A stretch of DNA of 64,000 bases from Prolixibacteraceae bacterium (GCA_019163175.1 JAFLKN010000021.1:161-64160); one strand, 5' to 3'; counted from the stretch's first letter, positions 35,943-43,294 are shown. A program made the numbers and translations. Notes: generated from the sequence alone by a model not told the origin.

Positions 35943-36563
35943 TTAAAATGTAAATCTACAATGTATTCCTATCAATTTATTATCCATACACATAACAGGG
36001 CCAGGCACCCAATTTATCGTCAAATCGTCGCTGATGTCGAAGTTGAAAAAGTGTGCATCAACACTCGCATCAATGATATTGACTGCATAAAAAACAACTG
36101 TACCAATAACAACCAAATCCCGATTTCTTCTCCAGTAATCCTTTTGCCTTCTTAAAGCTTCCGTAAAATTCGAAATTCGCTCAGGTTGAAGTAGGTATTC
36201 ATTAACCTTCAAATCAAGATGCGAATTTGTGTAAGGATCAGTGTCAATGATGTCAGAATAAGCTTGTTTGTATAGTGTATATTGTTCGTTGTTAAAGTTA
36301 ATAAAGTATCCTAGAGTTGCAAAACCACCATAAACCAATGGAACTTTCCAATATTTCCGATTGTACATCTGTCCCATACCGGGGAAAACAGCCGAATAAA
36401 TTGTTGCTTTTCGAGGTGAATGTAAAACTTCGGGTTTACCGACTTTTGTTGAATCAACAGCTGATTTCTGGCTATAGGCAGAAAATCCTGTTGCGAAAAA
36501 CAGGATTATAAAAAGACATGTACCAAATAGTTTGGATGGAATGATATTTCTTTTTCTATGCAT
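35943..36563 (-). CDS. DUF5683-domain protein
   Basis: HSPRKATIYSAVFPGMGQMYNRKYWKVPLVYGG and NIIDASVDAHF; conserved position after parB in Bacteroidota. Confidence 0.85.
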   Translation of the reverse strand: MHRKRNIIPSKLFGTCLFIILFFATGFSAYSQKSAVDSTKVGKPEVLHSPRKATIYSAVFPGMGQMYNRKYWKVPLVYGGFATLGYFINFNNEQYTLYKQAYSDIIDTDPYTNSHLDLKVNEYLLQPERISNFTEALRRQKDYWRRNRDLVVIGTVVFYAVNIIDASVDAHFFNFDISDDLTINWVPGPVMCMDNKLIGIHCRFTF

Positions 36564-37437
36564 CTAATTTGTCAAGGATTCCTAATATGCGTTCCAAGTC
36601 TTTGGTTGAAGAAAATGGAATGGTAATCTTTCCTTTTCCTGTTTGATCCATCTTGAAATCAATTTTCGACTGAAAATATTTGTTCAAATGATTGTATAAA
36701 TCCTGATATTCGGTCGGAAATTTGGGAACTTTCACTTTTTCTTCCGATTGAAAACTTGTCTGATCTTCGTTGTAATTTCGCACAATTTCTTCAACCCGGC
36801 GAACCGAAAATTCATTTTTTATGATTTCATCATAAATCATCAGCTGCATTTCCGAATCCTGTATATTAACCAAGGCGCGGGCGTGACCCATGCTGATGTT
36901 TTTATCAACAATGCCTTTCTGAATCTTTGCCGGCAGCTTTAGCAAACGAAGGTAATTGGTTACAGTTGACCGCTTTTTCCCAACTCTATCACTCAGTGTC
37001 TCTTGAGTCAGTTTGCATTCGTCAATTAATCGCTGGTAACTAAGTGCAATTTCAATGGCATCAAGATCTTCGCGTTGAATATTTTCAACCAATGCCATTT
37101 CTAGCATCCCTTCATCGTCAGCAGTTCTGACATATGCCGGAATTGATGTTAACCCGGCAATTTTCGATGCTCTGAATCTTCTTTCACCAGCAATAATCTG
37201 GAATTGATTGTCGTCAATTTTACGCAGCGTGATGGGCTGAATAATCCCGATTTCCTTTATTGAAGCAGCTAATTCGTTTAATGCTTCTTCATCAAATTTT
37301 GTACGGGGTTGAAAAGGGTTAGCTATAATCTTCGAAATTTCAATTTCGTTGATGGAAGAACCAATTTCTTTTTCAGGAGTATTGGCCCCATCAATTAAAG
37401 CACCTAAACCTCTTCCCAATGCGCTCTTTTTTGCCAT
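36556..37437 (-). CDS. parB: Chromosome partitioning protein ParB/Spo0J
   Basis: KKSALGRGLGALI, NPFQPR, IAGERR, ALVENIQREDL, HTH. Confidence 0.97.
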   Translation of the reverse strand: MAKKSALGRGLGALIDGANTPEKEIGSSINEIEISKIIANPFQPRTKFDEEALNELAASIKEIGIIQPITLRKIDDNQFQIIAGERRFRASKIAGLTSIPAYVRTADDEGMLEMALVENIQREDLDAIEIALSYQRLIDECKLTQETLSDRVGKKRSTVTNYLRLLKLPAKIQKGIVDKNISMGHARALVNIQDSEMQLMIYDEIIKNEFSVRRVEEIVRNYNEDQTSFQSEEKVKVPKFPTEYQDLYNHLNKYFQSKIDFKMDQTGKGKITIPFSSTKDLERILGILDKLDA

Positions 37438-37449
37438 AATTAAAAGGTC

Positions 37450-38250
37450 TTATTCAATAATTTTTTCGGAATTTTTCAATTTAGTCATACCATTATTCTG
37501 CAATAATTCGCGGGCCAGGTTCATATAAGACGAGGCGCCCTTTGAGGTTGCATCGTACAAAATTGCAGGCTGACCGTAACTTGGAGCTTCGCTAAGTTTA
37601 ATATTGCGTTGAATAACTGATTCAAATACCATCTCCTGAAAATGCTTCTTAACTTCTTCCTGCACCTGGTTCGATAAATTTAACCTTGAATCGAACATGG
37701 TAAGTAAAAATCCCTCAATCTCAAGTTCCGGATGCAATTTGGTTTGTATTATCTTAATAGTATTCAAAAGTTTACCCAACCCTTCCAGTGCAAAATATTC
37801 ACATTGTACAGGAATAATAACCGAATCGGCTGCAGTGAGCGCATTCACAGTAATCAAACCTAATGAAGGAGAACAGTCGATCAAAATAAAATCGTAGTCG
37901 TTTCTTATTTTTTCGATTACATGGCGCAAGACTTTTTCCCGGTTCGGAAGATTGAGCATTTCAATTTCAGCACCAACCAGATCGATGTGCGATGGAATAA
38001 GGTCTAAACCTTGAATCTCAGTATTTAATATGATTTTTCTTGGATCAAGTTCATCAACGATACATTCATAGATACTGGTTTTTACATTTCGTACATCAAA
38101 TCCAACTCCGGAAGTGGCATTGGCTTGTGGATCAGCATCTATAATCAAAACTTTATATTCTAAAACAGCCAGACTTGCTGCCAGATTTATTGCAGTTGTG
38201 GTTTTTCCAACTCCACCTTTTTGGTTAGCAAGTGCAATTACTTTTCCCAT
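37450..38250 (-). CDS. parA: Chromosome partitioning ATPase ParA/Soj
   Basis: NQKGGVGKTTT, DADPQANAT, DCSPSLG, PVQCEYFALEG, LSEAPS. Confidence 0.97.
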   Translation of the reverse strand: MGKVIALANQKGGVGKTTTAINLAASLAVLEYKVLIIDADPQANATSGVGFDVRNVKTSIYECIVDELDPRKIILNTEIQGLDLIPSHIDLVGAEIEMLNLPNREKVLRHVIEKIRNDYDFILIDCSPSLGLITVNALTAADSVIIPVQCEYFALEGLGKLLNTIKIIQTKLHPELEIEGFLLTMFDSRLNLSNQVQEEVKKHFQEMVFESVIQRNIKLSEAPSYGQPAILYDATSKGASSYMNLARELLQNNGMTKLKNSEKIIE

Positions 38251-38276
38251 ACAAAAACTACTTATTTGTTAAGTTC

Positions 38277-38284
38277 CAAAGTTA
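38277..38284 (-). promoter_or_regulatory. parAB promoter -7 element (TAACTTTG)
   Basis: Exact TAnnTTTG match 26 nt upstream of the parA ATG. Confidence 0.65.
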
Positions 38285-38497
38285 ATATTTTAAACAGAAA
38301 CCGGTAGTAAATATTTATTAATTAAACTTAACGGACTTACAATGTGTTGAAATTCAAATTATTGAAAATGCAAATTTGTAAGACCGAAATATACTTCAGA
38401 TAAACGCTATTAAAACCAAAATGTTGCCTGTTTTTAGGTGCTCAGTTTGCAAATTCACTGATAAGCAACAGGGTTAGAGTTAAAATTCAAATTATCT

Positions 38498-38617
38498 TCA
38501 TAGCATGCTGATCTTTTGCATCATTTTCAACAATTGCAAATCAATTGTCATATCAATGGAGAATAATGCATATTTCCCAGATAATTTGATGGAAATCTGT
38601 TTTCTCAGCGATGTCAT
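38498..38617 (-). CDS. Possible 39-aa small ORF (MTSLRKQISIKLSGKYALFSIDMTIDLQLLKMMQKISML)
   Basis: Manual translation; TAGTTTTG -7 element at 38638-38645 just upstream. No recognisable homology. Confidence 0.25.
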   Translation of the reverse strand: MTSLRKQISIKLSGKYALFSIDMTIDLQLLKMMQKISML

Positions 38618-38692
38618 CTTGTTCTGATTACGGGACGCAAAACTAGTAAATATTGTATGCTGAAAATAAGAAAGCTTGAATTGAGTACTGCT

Positions 38693-38740
38693 AAAAACAC
38701 GAATGGGAACAATCCTTTCAGATAGTTCCCATTCACTTTT
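38693..38740 (-). terminator. Intrinsic terminator closing the candidate ncRNA
   Basis: Minus-strand GAAUGGGAAC...GUUCCCAUUC 10-bp perfect stem, extendable, followed by GUGUUUUU. Confidence 0.75.
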
Positions 38741-39234
38741 GGTTCGCCCGAGGGCTTACCTCAGTGCCAGACTACGGTTATTTAAGCCGGCGGCTCCATC
38801 CGGTTTCTCCAACCATTTTTTGCAGCCTTGAGCTTTCCTGTATTGCTTGTTACAGCATTACGTTCCAGCTGTTCATTCGACTATTCCGAAGAAGTGCCTT
38901 CCTGAACGAAGTTCCTTTTTAGCCACCTTTTTTCATCATTTCTTTCGATCTGGTGATAGGTGAAAAACTAATTTGATCCGAGGATCATTTCATTTTCAGT
39001 TCGACTTCCGGAAACCAAGGTTTCTTTTTGTCTCCTGCTTTTTTTGAATCAACATTGATATGAACGTTTTCGCGATCATTTGTTTGCTGATGAACCTATT
39101 CATTTCTGTTTCGGTTCGAACTTCAGCTTTTCGTGAATGCAGATCCGAAGATCCGGATGATCGGGTTTGGGGGTCAATTAAGTACCTTCTTCCTCTTCCA
39201 TTCAATCAAAGCAACTTTTTATCGCTCGTCTGAT
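38693..39234 (-). ncRNA. Candidate large (~540 nt) structured non-coding RNA, family not identified
   Basis: Upstream TTG-N21-TAACTTTA promoter-like element; multiple tetraloop hairpins; 5'/3' closing helix CAGAC/GUCUG; terminator; no credible CDS. Ends are estimated. Confidence 0.6.
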
Positions 39235-39302
39235 GATATAAAGTTAATACATTAGATACCCCAAAGTCAAGCTTTTAGTCAATTTTGATTCAACCGTATT
39301 TG

Positions 39303-39338
39303 ATCACTAGTTATCAACAATTGTTAATAACTAGTGAT
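39303..39338. repeat. 36-bp near-perfect palindrome containing two inverted DnaA-box-like 9-mers
   Basis: ATCACTAGTTAT-C-AACAATTGTT-A-ATAACTAGTGAT; only one mismatched pair. Confidence 0.8.
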
Positions 39339-39415
39339 GCATCTAATTGATTGATTTTCATGTTTTTTATTTGTTTATAAAGTGACTTTATCAAGGTTAT
39401 AAACAATTTTGAATC

Positions 39416-40084
39416 TTAAAAAATGGCTTGATTATTCTTTAGTACAATTCTTAAACCTTCTTCGAGTCTAAATTCTGCTGTTTCAATACCAATTTCCTTT
39501 AAAGCAGCTCTAAAGCCTTCATTCATCATTCGTCCTGCCCTTAGCGGAAAGTCAATTAATGCCGGAAAGTTTTCTTCTCTTTCAGGATGTTTATAAAATT
39601 CCAGACAAGTGTCAAGTTTAGTGGAAAGATAAATTCTACAAGCCATTGGTCTGGCTGAATACATTGAACATGCACCATTTTTCAGCAATGGACATGGTGA
39701 TTTGAATTTAAGTATTTCATTTTCTGAAAGTCTTGATGTTTTTGAATATTTAACTTCTGTTTGACGAATTAATGACAAAAGCTCTTCTTCGCTGAAACTT
39801 CTTTTTATTTGTGAAGCGAGGTAGTGCATTTCATACGAATTGGCAAAGACCGCCTGATGGCAACACCAATGACATCCTTTGTGACAGGCTACATCTATTT
39901 GCTGGCGTTTGGCCAAGTCCAGAATCGAGTCATTCAATCCATCAATAGCTTCATACAGAGATTCTATAGCTGAAAATAGGGACTCTTCAGAAAAACCTTT
40001 TTGGATGGCCGATTGAGCCAGCTTGTAACCATCAGAATAAAAAATACGATCGTTTTCTGTAAAATGCTTATTTTCGGTGGTCAT
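39416..40084 (-). CDS. YkgJ-family cysteine-cluster (putative Fe-S/Zn) protein
   Basis: CHKGCHWCC and CPLL...CSMYSARPMACR motifs. Start at 40084 or 40105. Confidence 0.85.
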   Translation of the reverse strand: MTTENKHFTENDRIFYSDGYKLAQSAIQKGFSEESLFSAIESLYEAIDGLNDSILDLAKRQQIDVACHKGCHWCCHQAVFANSYEMHYLASQIKRSFSEEELLSLIRQTEVKYSKTSRLSENEILKFKSPCPLLKNGACSMYSARPMACRIYLSTKLDTCLEFYKHPEREENFPALIDFPLRAGRMMNEGFRAALKEIGIETAEFRLEEGLRIVLKNNQAIF

Positions 40085-40173
40085 ATTGTGAAAAATTTTC
40101 CACAAAAATAATTTTAGTTTTCAGGAAAGGGTTTATCTTGAAGCGTTATTTTTATCCGATAAATACTGAAATT

Positions 40174-41049
40174 ATGCGACTTCTATTCACCATTTTAGTC
40201 CTGTTTATATCCAATTTATTGACGGCAAAATCCGTTAATTACATTCCTATTCCATCAAAAGACCTTGTTAAGCACGCTTATTATATGCTGTCGTACAACG
40301 AAAAGTACGAACAGGCAAACTGGGTATACTATAGCCTGACAGATAGCATGGTTCTGAATAGTGGGGAAGAGAGAAGCAATAGTTTCAAGATGGATCAATT
40401 GGTTCCTACCGGATCAGCAAAATCATCTGACTATACAAAAAGCGGTTACGATCGTGGCCACTTATGCCCGGCTGCAGATATGGGATTTAGTCCTATTTCT
40501 ATGCAGGAAAGCTTCATGATGTCGAACGTTTCACCTCAAACGCCCGATTTTAACAGGGGAATCTGGAAAGAACTTGAAACAACCGTGCGCGAATGGGCTA
40601 AAAAAGAGCATCATATCTATATTGTTACTGGTCCAATTTTTAAGGATAACAAAGGGTCGATTGGTACTGAAGAAGTTCTTGTGCCTGGATATTTCTATAA
40701 AATTATCTATGATGCCACTGATGCGCCCAAGCTAATTGCATTTGTACTCCCAAATGAAAAGAGCAACAGGCCATTGACCGATTTTGTTGTGTCAACCGAT
40801 GCAGCAGAAAAACTTACCGGATTTGATTTTTTTTCGCAACTGCCAGATGATTTGGAAACTAAATTGGAGAGTAGGGCCGACCTTTCCGGATGGTTTGGAG
40901 GTTATGCCCCAAAGTCACCAACAACGCTGCAGACGAATACCGAAATAGCCAGTTCAAATTTGAAATTTTACCTTGTTCTGGTTATTGTTATTGGGCTCGT
41001 CGTACTTTTTGTTACTATACGAAGCCGTCGTAGGAAAAGAAGCATGTAA
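40174..41049 (+). CDS. DNA/RNA non-specific endonuclease (NucA/EndA-type), exported, with C-terminal TM
   Basis: YDRGHLCPAAD, SNVSPQ, FNRGIW..LE, IVTGP, VPGYFYKII; C-terminal hydrophobic stretch plus RSRRRKR. ATG at 40174 preferred. Confidence 0.92.
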   Translation: MRLLFTILVLFISNLLTAKSVNYIPIPSKDLVKHAYYMLSYNEKYEQANWVYYSLTDSMVLNSGEERSNSFKMDQLVPTGSAKSSDYTKSGYDRGHLCPAADMGFSPISMQESFMMSNVSPQTPDFNRGIWKELETTVREWAKKEHHIYIVTGPIFKDNKGSIGTEEVLVPGYFYKIIYDATDAPKLIAFVLPNEKSNRPLTDFVVSTDAAEKLTGFDFFSQLPDDLETKLESRADLSGWFGGYAPKSPTTLQTNTEIASSNLKFYLVLVIVIGLVVLFVTIRSRRRKRSM

Positions 41050-41053
41050 AGTT

Positions 41054-43294
41054 TTACTTCTTAATGGGTATGGTGAATCGAAAATCTGAATACTCATTAA
41101 GCACCGAATCAACCCAAATGGTTCCGCCAAGTAATTCAACCATATTTTTTGAAATAGCCAATCCTAAGCCGTTACCTCCATACTTTCGAGTGCGTGCAGT
41201 ATCTACTTGTCTGAATCGCTCAAAAACAGCTTCAAAGTTTGCAGGTGAAATGCCAATTCCGGTATCTTTAACGCGGAATTCAACCAGTTCATCTTTCAGT
41301 TTGTAGCCAATTTCAATAGAGCCATTCTGTGTAAATTTAAGTGCATTACCTACAAGATTATTAAAAACTTGCTTGATTCGGTAATTGTCACTTTCAATCC
41401 AGACATCCGAATCATTTGATGATTCATCAATGCGAAGTTCGATGCCTTTTTGATTTGCTTTATTTGTAAAATCAATCAGTACATCTTTTAAAAGTTTCTT
41501 GCTCGAAATTTTTTCTGTTCTAATTTTAATCTGATGAGCTTCCAACATGGAGAAATCCATTATGTCGCTGATAATTAGTAGCAAACTATTTCCGTTTTCA
41601 ATAATTGTTTTAATAAATTCTGCTTTTTGTTCCTGATCGAAATCAGTATCACTCAATAACTCAGAAAAACCAATAATGCTATTAAGTGGAGTTCGAATTT
41701 CATGCGACATATTCGCCAGAAATGCAGATTTCAGCCTATCACTTTCTTCAGCTTTTTCCTTTGCTGCGACGAGTTCTGCCTCCATCTTCTTTCGTTCCGA
41801 AATATCCTCTTTTATTGCTATGTAGCTGGTTGTTATGTTTTTATCATTTTTAATTGAAGTTATTGTTACCCATTCCCAATAATTCGTTCCATCCTTTCTT
41901 TTATTCAGCATTTCGCCACTCCATACTTTTCCAGATTTAATGGTATCCCATAATTCAGCATATGTTTCGGGCGGTGTTAACCCCGATTTAAGTATTCTGG
42001 GATTTTTCCCAATTACTTCATTCTCTTCATATCCTGTGCTTTCATAGAATTTAGGATTCACATATTCAATATTTCCTAATGTATCAGTAATAACTATGGT
42101 TGTAGGGCTTTGTTCGATACCTTTGGAAAGCTTCAATATTTTTTCCTGAGCAAGCTTATGCTCCGTAATATCACGTCCGATACCTACTAATCCAACAATC
42201 TTACCATTTTCGTCAGGCAGAGGTATTTTAGAAGTTACCAACCACCGTTGAGTTCCGTCTTTGTCGTAAAAATCTTCTTCCCGATTTAGTACTGCCTGTG
42301 CAGTTTCAATTACGCGTTGGTCATCAGCAAATCCACGTTGGCCTATCTCATTATTAAATGTATCTAAATCAGTCTTCCCAATTACATCACTTTCTGATTC
42401 TGCGCCAACTATGGCAAGATCAGCCCGATTAGCTATTATTTTGCGACATTCAGCATCCTTTACATAGATGGTTACAGGTAAATTATCAATCAAAGTACGA
42501 AGAAGTTTTCGCTCCTGTTTTAGTTTTTCCTCAGTCGTTTTTCGTTCAGTAATATCATTAATTAATACATGTTTTGCGTTTCGTTGATTGAAAATCAAAG
42601 CATGAGAAATAATTTCGACAAAAATATGCTCACCATTCTTTTTTATATGTGTCCATTCTTTAATCTGCTTAAATTGATTATCTGTAGATTGAATGTCTTT
42701 TTCTAATTCTTCAGCCAGAAGTATATCTTTCAAAGTCATTGAAAGAAATTCTGACTGGGAATATCCATAATGTCTGATTGCCGCTTCGTTAACTTCGAGA
42801 AACGACAGGCTTGTGATATCATAAATCCACATTGGTTGCGGGTTATTATGAAACATGTACCTGTATTTTGCTTCATTTAACCTTATTGTTTCAACGGCCT
42901 CCGCTCGTTCCTGTCTGATTCTGCGTTGTTCAAGTGCACTTAAAACAGAAGAACCCAATCGTTTTAATGAATCTTTCAGTACATAGTCCATTGCACCGGC
43001 TTTCATACATTCAACAGCAGTATCTTCATTTATTGAACCTGTTACTATTACAAATGGAATTAAAGGACATACATTCTGGGCAATTCTAAGTGCAGAAAGT
43101 CCGTCAAAAGAAGGCAGGTTATAATCTGAAATGATAATATCAGGAAGAAACGATTTCAGTTGGTATTGATACGCCTCTTTATTGTCAACAACTTCAAAAA
43201 TGCAGGATGGCAATACTTTTTTTATTTCTCTAATGTTGAGTTCCGCATCAAACGACTCATCCTCAACAAGTAAAACATGATATATTTGGTTCAT
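41054..43294 (-). CDS. REC-PAS-PAS-PAS histidine kinase
   Basis: N-terminal REC (VEDE, SDYNLP), three PAS/PAC units, FLANMSHEIRTPLN, NLVGNALKFT, GNGLGL. Confidence 0.93.
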   Translation of the reverse strand: MNQIYHVLLVEDESFDAELNIREIKKVLPSCIFEVVDNKEAYQYQLKSFLPDIIISDYNLPSFDGLSALRIAQNVCPLIPFVIVTGSINEDTAVECMKAGAMDYVLKDSLKRLGSSVLSALEQRRIRQERAEAVETIRLNEAKYRYMFHNNPQPMWIYDITSLSFLEVNEAAIRHYGYSQSEFLSMTLKDILLAEELEKDIQSTDNQFKQIKEWTHIKKNGEHIFVEIISHALIFNQRNAKHVLINDITERKTTEEKLKQERKLLRTLIDNLPVTIYVKDAECRKIIANRADLAIVGAESESDVIGKTDLDTFNNEIGQRGFADDQRVIETAQAVLNREEDFYDKDGTQRWLVTSKIPLPDENGKIVGLVGIGRDITEHKLAQEKILKLSKGIEQSPTTIVITDTLGNIEYVNPKFYESTGYEENEVIGKNPRILKSGLTPPETYAELWDTIKSGKVWSGEMLNKRKDGTNYWEWVTITSIKNDKNITTSYIAIKEDISERKKMEAELVAAKEKAEESDRLKSAFLANMSHEIRTPLNSIIGFSELLSDTDFDQEQKAEFIKTIIENGNSLLLIISDIMDFSMLEAHQIKIRTEKISSKKLLKDVLIDFTNKANQKGIELRIDESSNDSDVWIESDNYRIKQVFNNLVGNALKFTQNGSIEIGYKLKDELVEFRVKDTGIGISPANFEAVFERFRQVDTARTRKYGGNGLGLAISKNMVELLGGTIWVDSVLNEYSDFRFTIPIKK

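Follow-up and report, generated by a model that had tools for sequence, protein, structure and literature searches.

What is encoded in the 1166-bp ORF-free gap that separates a CxxCxxCC-domain gene (39416-40105) from parA (37450-38250) and parB (36556-37437) in a MAG from an uncultured genus of Prolixibacteraceae? The window, that is, the whole stretch of DNA analyzed, spans 64,000 nucleotides, and a first-pass annotation had proposed that the minus strand of this gap carries a large, highly structured noncoding RNA transcribed on its own. The sequence and coordinates of the minus strand from 39270 to 38693 match that description, and the core proposal holds, as judged by promoter and terminator signals, conservation, and covariation. 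We are close to certain that the locus is a genuine structured RNA gene. The best overall reading is that its product is a trans-acting structured RNA and a possible partner of PhoH2, to which we assign a probability of roughly 0.6. Few bacterial noncoding RNAs reach several hundred nucleotides and adopt intricate conserved folds, and the ones understood so far have fundamental roles.

Limits and control signals of the RNA gene

The RNA gene (copy A) occupies 38694-39235 on the minus strand (542 nt), and the homologues found by nhmmer and BLAST align with it end to end and carry compensatory changes. Its limits emerge from a BLAST comparison of the whole gap with 29 orthologous loci. The conserved stretch begins at a palindrome approximately 100 bp before the RNA, spans the promoter and the RNA, and ends exactly at the U-run at 38694, leaving the spacer to parA unconserved. 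The promoter is of the Bacteroidetes type (39239-39270, minus strand), with a -33 TTG at 39268-39270 and a -7 box, TAACTTTA, at 39239-39246. Both elements had been picked out earlier as promoter-like; they form conserved columns in the alignments of both paralogues, where the -7 box follows TAnnTTTA, and are kept in other families, where it reads TAnnTTTG. Conservation of the RNA sequence itself starts at CAUCAGAC, 4 nt past the -7 box. From the conserved TTG, -7 box, and 5' sequence, we infer that transcription starts at about A39234 and yields an RNA of about 542 nt (38694-39235).

The 3' end of the RNA would lie at an intrinsic terminator (38694-38735, minus strand), in which a 13-bp interrupted stem (hairpin GAAUGGGAAC..GUUCCCAUUC) is followed by the U-run, in agreement with the strong terminator previously placed at 38693-38740. 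The hairpin is kept family-wide, with a GGGAA/UUCCC core conserved across the class, and helix 28 is 98% paired in alignment A2 (see below). It is also included in the covariance model R2, by which members of the family are detected at the level of order and class. A simple terminator/promoter scan, with Bacteroidetes promoters outside its coverage, overlooked the terminator. Judged by its sequence signals, the locus is an independent transcription unit, with its own predicted sigma-A promoter of the Bacteroidetes type, a dedicated palindromic operator array in front of it, and an intrinsic terminator at the end.

The operator palindrome extends over 39304-39337 (no strand assigned), with a core, TTATTAACAATTGTTGATAA, at 39311-39330 that is centered about 86 bp upstream of the presumed start. 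It is conserved in both paralogues and in 29 of 29 orthologues, and within the 5.9-Mb genome it matches at the two RNA genes only (0 mismatches for copy A, 2 for copy B). An operator that is unique in its genome points to a regulator that the DNA could capture. Upstream of the homologues in most other Bacteroidales families, a TTATTAACAATTGTTAATAA-type palindrome is followed by more TGTTNNTAA boxes, and these elements are also present in some other orders. An operator of the Bacteroidetes SOS repressor was considered and dismissed, as the palindrome fits neither of that repressor's motifs, GGA-N5-TCC and CTAA-N5-TTAG (PMC8565304). Searching the literature for the palindrome and the conserved strings turned up nothing but unrelated primers.

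The surroundings of the gene could indicate that it acts in cis, either as a leader of parAB or as the transcript of a replication origin marked by an array of DnaA-box-like TTATNAACA sequences. parA lies 443 bp downstream on the same strand, and the locus is near the record start in two closed genomes of the genus. Just upstream of the RNA, the densest TTATNAACA cluster of the whole genome (5 boxes in 280 bp, 39311-39588; G000:C25:39471-39748) reaches from the operator into the 3' end of the CxxCxxCC-domain gene. However, conservation ends at the strong terminator, and the unconserved spacer (38251-38693, 443 bp) holds a PfkB-family sugar kinase gene in 24 of the 29 species of the genus. Furthermore, the palindrome, promoter, and terminator are retained next to unrelated genes in the paralogue and in homologues from other families, and the boxes likewise accompany the RNA gene in the paralogue and in distant families. 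A different contig carries dnaA, and the GC skew of the window is uninformative. On these grounds, both a parAB leader and a role of the boxes as an origin mark were set aside, and we consider cis action of either kind very improbable. The position "upstream of parAB" given in the first-pass annotation is incidental, with the PfkB gene between RNA and parA at those 24 orthologous loci and the paralogue following an Nramp gene. Here the PfkB-family gene has been cleanly lost: the spacer contains no remnant of it, and the rest of the genome no copy.

A second TTATNAACA cluster, of 4 boxes, is present at G000:C16:59729-60125. The upstream neighbors of the locus also include genes for an Endonuclease_NS protein (non-specific DNA/RNA endonuclease) and a hybrid PAS histidine kinase/response regulator (40138-41049, 41054-43294). 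In another species (L034), the paralogous RNA copy also has a related PAS kinase next to it.

Fold and covariation

The single-sequence fold scores -151 kcal/mol, compared with -128 +/- 6.8 kcal/mol for dinucleotide shuffles (z = -3.4). Alignment A1 contains 49 sequences of the genus, 29 orthologues and 20 paralogues, the two groups being 67% identical to each other; RNAalifold returns 97 pairs for it, 59 of them with compensatory changes. Alignment A2 (60 sequences) adds 22 full-length copies from other genera to A1, with near-duplicates thinned, and has a consensus of 121 pairs. In A2, 91.8% of cells are paired, compared with 81.6% for column shuffles and 28-45% for slid partners. Changes on both sides are observed in 93 of the 121 pairs (61 for column shuffles, 46-58 for slid partners), and the covariation score is 0.381 (0.203 for column shuffles, at most 0.126 for slid partners). 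As read from these alignments, the fold is maintained by compensatory changes.

The two ends of the RNA are joined by the closing helix P1 (5' arm CAGAC at 39228-39232, 3' arm GUCUG at 38768-38772, minus strand), which had been proposed earlier from this one sequence. It is 99% paired in A2 and covaries, becoming CAGGU/ACCUG in other genera (AU:44 GC:16; CG:33 UG:15 UA:9). The 5' junction GAGCGAUAAAA (39217-39227, minus strand) is invariant or nearly so in A1 and A2 and is kept as GAGNGAUAAA in every family and order examined. It is faced by the 3' junction (U)AAAUAACCGUA (38773-38784, minus strand), which consists of nearly invariant columns and is kept as AAUAACNGUA across the class. The 5' arm of P2 and the 5' domain (39126-39216, minus strand) form nested helices together with the hairpin GGAUC-UUCG-GAUCU; helices 2-8 all include pairs with double changes in A2, and the hairpin, 93% paired, shows them in 5 of 5 pairs. 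The central domain (38908-39124, minus strand) is closed by the long-range helix GAAGU (39120-39124)/ACUUC (38908-38912), contains at least five hairpins, and is the most length-variable part between lineages. Within A2, helix 9 is 99% paired and helices 10-17 covary. Three stem-loop domains on the 3' side (38871-38907, 38832-38869, and 38789-38827) occupy, with the 3' arm of P2, positions 38785-38907 of the minus strand; they comprise helices 18-24, in which pair 428/466 is GC:30 AU:25 and pair 375/424 is CG:29 UA:25 (A2). The 3'-tail hairpin GGU-AA-GCC-CUCG-GGC-GA-ACC (38741-38760, minus strand) is 83% paired and also shows double changes.

Both this 3' hairpin and GGAUC-UUCG-GAUCU had been drawn by the first-pass annotation, and several of its other elements recur in the A2 consensus, namely UGAUC-CUCG-GAUCA (75% paired), UUC-UUCG-GAA (72%), GAAAC-CUUG-GUUUC in the consensus register (93%, helix 14), and UC-GAAA-GA (helix 17). 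Its long stem GCUGA..GAACC/GGUUC..UCAGC survives in part: the inner GAACC/GGUUC is 84% paired, but the outer GCUGA/UCAGC reaches only 64% and conflicts with helices 24-29/111-115 (89%) and 117-121/368-372 (99%). The pairing ACAGC/GCUGU conflicts with helices 428-430/464-466 (GC:30 AU:25) and 435-444/451-459 and is not supported. In the 3' tails of other Bacteroidales families (L144-L153), the hairpin that follows the closing helix has a conserved loop, GCUACGG, complementary to the invariant CCGUAGC strand. A pseudoknot between the two was rejected, as no covariation is seen and the loop motif is absent in Prolixibacteraceae, this genus included.

The earlier view that the locus holds no credible CDS is borne out by the alignments, in which no conserved ORF is found and the longest open stretches share neither frame nor position between sequences. 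A 69-codon ORF at 38996-39205 was discarded as a gene because it is not conserved. It is exceedingly improbable that the locus is nonfunctional as RNA, as a coding or decaying gene would be, or that it represents a mobile-element RNA (omega RNA, bridge RNA, or an intron remnant). The sequence is indeed purine-rich, and chance open frames reach 144 codons in some homologues, but these frames vary in position and the substitutions are compensatory. Similarly, a transposase, reverse transcriptase, or nuclease gene is never a conserved neighbor, synteny within the genus is stable, and viral contigs contain no match to the 5' motif of the family.

Distribution and comparison with known RNA classes

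This genome holds two copies only. The second (G000:C67:101-635) is 67% identical to the first and lies downstream of DEAD-box helicase and Nramp genes. Within the genus, the RNA is present in 34 of 36 genomes, most of them with a second copy, and the two genomes that lack it are 83-84% complete. Wider searches relied on two covariance models, R1, built from the 5' domain, which finds homologues in other families, and R2, representing the 3' domain; the E-values from these short-calibrated models are rough, and the counts that follow denote what was found among the genomes searched. R2 detects the RNA in 129 of 150 high-quality Prolixibacteraceae genomes (86%) and 24 of 32 genera, with 1-4 copies each, sometimes in tandem. 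Beyond the family, it is found in about 31 of 147 sampled Bacteroidales families (about a fifth), in 12 of 150 genomes of a class-wide sample, and in 1 of 150 genomes of a phylum-wide draw. The weaker matches that were inspected (9 of the 12 in the class draw) each have a TAnnTTTG promoter as well as the 5' motif CAUCARGUGAGNGAUAAA, located 230-640 nt upstream. A search with a 20-mer taken from the invariant 3' strand hit 52 contigs, nearly all from MAGs labeled Prolixibacteraceae, Bacteroidales, Bacteroidia, or Bacteroidota. The family is widespread in Bacteroidia and absent from Rfam; in Prolixibacteraceae it amounts to a near-core gene.

Across lineages the total length ranges from 230 to 640 nt, with conserved 5' and 3' ends and a variable interior that grows from approximately 100 to approximately 500 nt between members. 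Common to all members is a terminal module composed of P1, the facing strands GAGNGAUAAA and AAUAACNGUA, P2, and the 3' tail (hairpin and terminator). Given the varied length and constant ends, the family is defined by this constant terminal module together with a highly variable interior. The genomic setting differs as well. In G352, eno and a UbiD gene flank a full-length homologue (nhmmer E = 2e-61), and the neighbors in different lineages include eno/UbiD, DnaG, DAHP synthase, MsrB, Nramp, and parA; no protein neighbor conserved across all lineages was found. Several other genera and orders carry two or three RNA genes in tandem, approximately 0.9-1.7 kb apart and each with a promoter region of its own. 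Such loci are L118 (G098:C1:2261082-2262564), L119, L120, L181 (G410:C84), and G217:C1:6240837-6242570.

At gathering thresholds, Rfam 15 has no match anywhere in the window; with E-values up to 10 the locus yields only chance-level matches, and 12 + 9 homologue loci yield nothing but an unrelated tRNA. The first-pass annotation had seen no hallmarks of tmRNA, RNase P, tRNA, or a CRISPR array and had judged the candidate much longer than 6S or SRP RNA, which is consistent with these results. ARAGORN finds no tRNA or tmRNA in the window, and the genome's RNase P RNA (RF00010, 221 bits) and tmRNA (RF00023, 151 bits) are located on other contigs, C37 and C17, respectively. The first-pass suggestion of a motif class such as Bacteroidales-2 found no backing, as no Rfam motif matches and the name was not found among the top-ranked literature results. 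OLE (RF01071), ROOL (RF03087), GOLLD (RF01998), and raiA resemble the RNA in size, in their tetraloop-capped covarying helices, and in being free-standing genes. However, none of their covariance models matches, there is no sequence or structure match, and the phylum differs. The RNA described here is also not phage-borne and is set apart by its constant terminal module, variable interior, and dedicated operator.

Could this be a 6S-like RNA, expanded in this lineage alone, that sequesters RNA polymerase? It resembles 6S RNA as an abundant-type stand-alone gene with paired 5' and 3' ends that sometimes occurs in two copies. Bacillus has two 6S RNAs, which the two copies here would parallel. 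The smallest relatives are approximately 230 nt long, and RF00013 has no match anywhere in this genome, where the sole 6S-like signal is a sub-threshold 6S-Flavo match (G000:C8:1101-1234, 36.8 bits with a cut-off of 85). Yet neither 6S model (RF00013, RF01685) matches at the locus, even weakly, and the consensus is multi-branched rather than a rod with a central bubble. The distribution is patchy, with the family missing from most sampled Bacteroidales families, whereas 6S RNA is, to our knowledge, near-universal. Bacteroides, moreover, has its own validated 6S RNA (PMC7366714). We therefore rejected 6S RNA as a class assignment and give the expanded 6S-like form very little credence.

A possible link to PhoH2

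PhoH2 combines a PIN-domain RNase and a PhoH RNA helicase in one protein (PIN_4 + PhoH). In 5 of 8 homologue loci from other Bacteroidia orders, a full-length PhoH2 orthologue directly adjoins the RNA. These orthologues are 49-54% identical to the PhoH2 of this genome; the gene is divergent in four cases and lies upstream on the same strand in one. The phoH2 gene of this genome (G000:C12:32008-33339) is unlinked from both RNA copies, and phoH2 was found within 6 kb of the RNA neither here nor in any of the 20 Bacteroidales homologue loci. Of 150 family genomes, 146 encode PIN_4/PhoH2, some of them in genera where the RNA was not found, and three family genomes have the RNA and no PIN_4 match. 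With PIN_4 near-universal whether or not the RNA is present, co-occurrence of PhoH2 and RNA does not discriminate.

The promoter regions offer a further connection. Upstream of phoH2, 16 of 20 family genomes from many genera also have the box TTATNAAC, often arranged as a partial inverted repeat, where 1.6 would be expected from composition-matched shuffles and approximately 1.7 from the ORF-free DNA of this genome, the 20 regions being from related genomes and not independent samples. In most Prolixibacteraceae, the TTATNAAC-containing partial palindrome lies approximately 100-150 bp upstream of phoH2 (G000:C12:33431-33450; L207-L226). This partial palindrome may be an operator common to phoH2 and the RNA genes, and the presence of the box at phoH2 promoters fits a shared regulator. 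A divergently transcribed gene begins right at the phoH2-upstream boxes, which could act on that gene instead.

We propose that the folded RNA functions in trans, and that the invariant terminal module (P1, GAGNGAUAAA facing AAUAACNGUA, and P2) would serve as a protein-recognition or docking platform. The likeliest partner is PhoH2, which the RNA may bind as a decoy or inhibitor, as a scaffold, or as a dedicated substrate, and the RNA genes and phoH2 would share a regulator that recognizes the TTATNAAC boxes. The link derives from the adjacency in other orders and from the shared promoter box where the genes are unlinked. It forms a testable hypothesis on two questions, the role of the RNA and the substrates of PIN-helicase proteins. 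That the RNA works with PhoH2 in this particular organism is possible, though we lean somewhat against it. Less likely again is the more specific proposal that the RNA is a dedicated PhoH2 subunit or regulator, in which the module docks the enzyme and the interior sequesters it (an RNA "antitoxin") or directs it, both genes being co-regulated via TTATNAAC operators though they have drifted apart. If true, a dedicated subunit would define a new ribonucleoprotein system across Bacteroidia.

The proposed pairing recalls type III toxin-antitoxin RNAs (ToxI) and the proposed mycobacterial PhoH2/PhoAT pair, in which a nuclease gene is accompanied by a separately expressed neighbor that possibly restrains the nuclease. 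PhoH2 is described as bearing a PIN domain of the toxin type, and one may speculate, purely by analogy, that the RNA inhibits it in the manner of ToxI. The RNA differs from ToxI in that it has no tandem repeats, is approximately 10x larger than the ToxI repeats, and is often unlinked from the nuclease gene. A type III antitoxin RNA in the strict sense was rejected, as the alignments show no tandem repeat units and, in this genome, the RNA and phoH2 are unlinked.

The principal alternative is a stand-alone large RNA unrelated to PhoH2, for example an OLE-, ROOL-, or raiA-like scaffold or self-assembling RNA or the partner of another protein, with the adjacency to phoH2 a lineage-specific accident. 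We regard this as a serious contender, though less likely than not. It would account for the absence of phoH2 within 6 kb at all 20 Bacteroidales loci and in this genome, for the varied neighbors, and for the presence of PhoH2 not following that of the RNA. The 5/8 adjacency, in at least four other families and in both divergent and tandem arrangement, is nevertheless hard to obtain by chance, and the TTATNAAC box is shared at phoH2 promoters. Such an association is also reported independently in a preprint (bioRxiv 10.64898/2026.10.21.760802, 22 Oct 2026), the available text of which describes PhoH2-associated structured RNAs in Bacteroidota (COMPASS cluster #1,412,455 and sister clusters). 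There, a Bacteroidota-enriched cluster adjoins phoH2 at 148 of 326 loci, and RNA-seq coverage is given for Pedobacter mucosus (Q8-18), in which the motif is 357 nt long.

Compared by description rather than by sequence, the family studied here is probably the one reported in that preprint. The RNAs in its available text are likewise multi-stem, belong to Bacteroidota, and have no known-family annotation, and phoH2 adjacency is seen in other orders. The earlier suggestion of a possibly undescribed RNA thus stands as far as Rfam is concerned, but it is qualified by the preprint RNAs, which, by their available description, probably include this family. At our locus the RNA is 542 nt long, as opposed to 357 nt; this genome has a second copy, and phoH2 lies on a different contig. 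Two features described here, the palindrome of the operator and the box shared with the phoH2 promoters, do not appear in the available text of the preprint.
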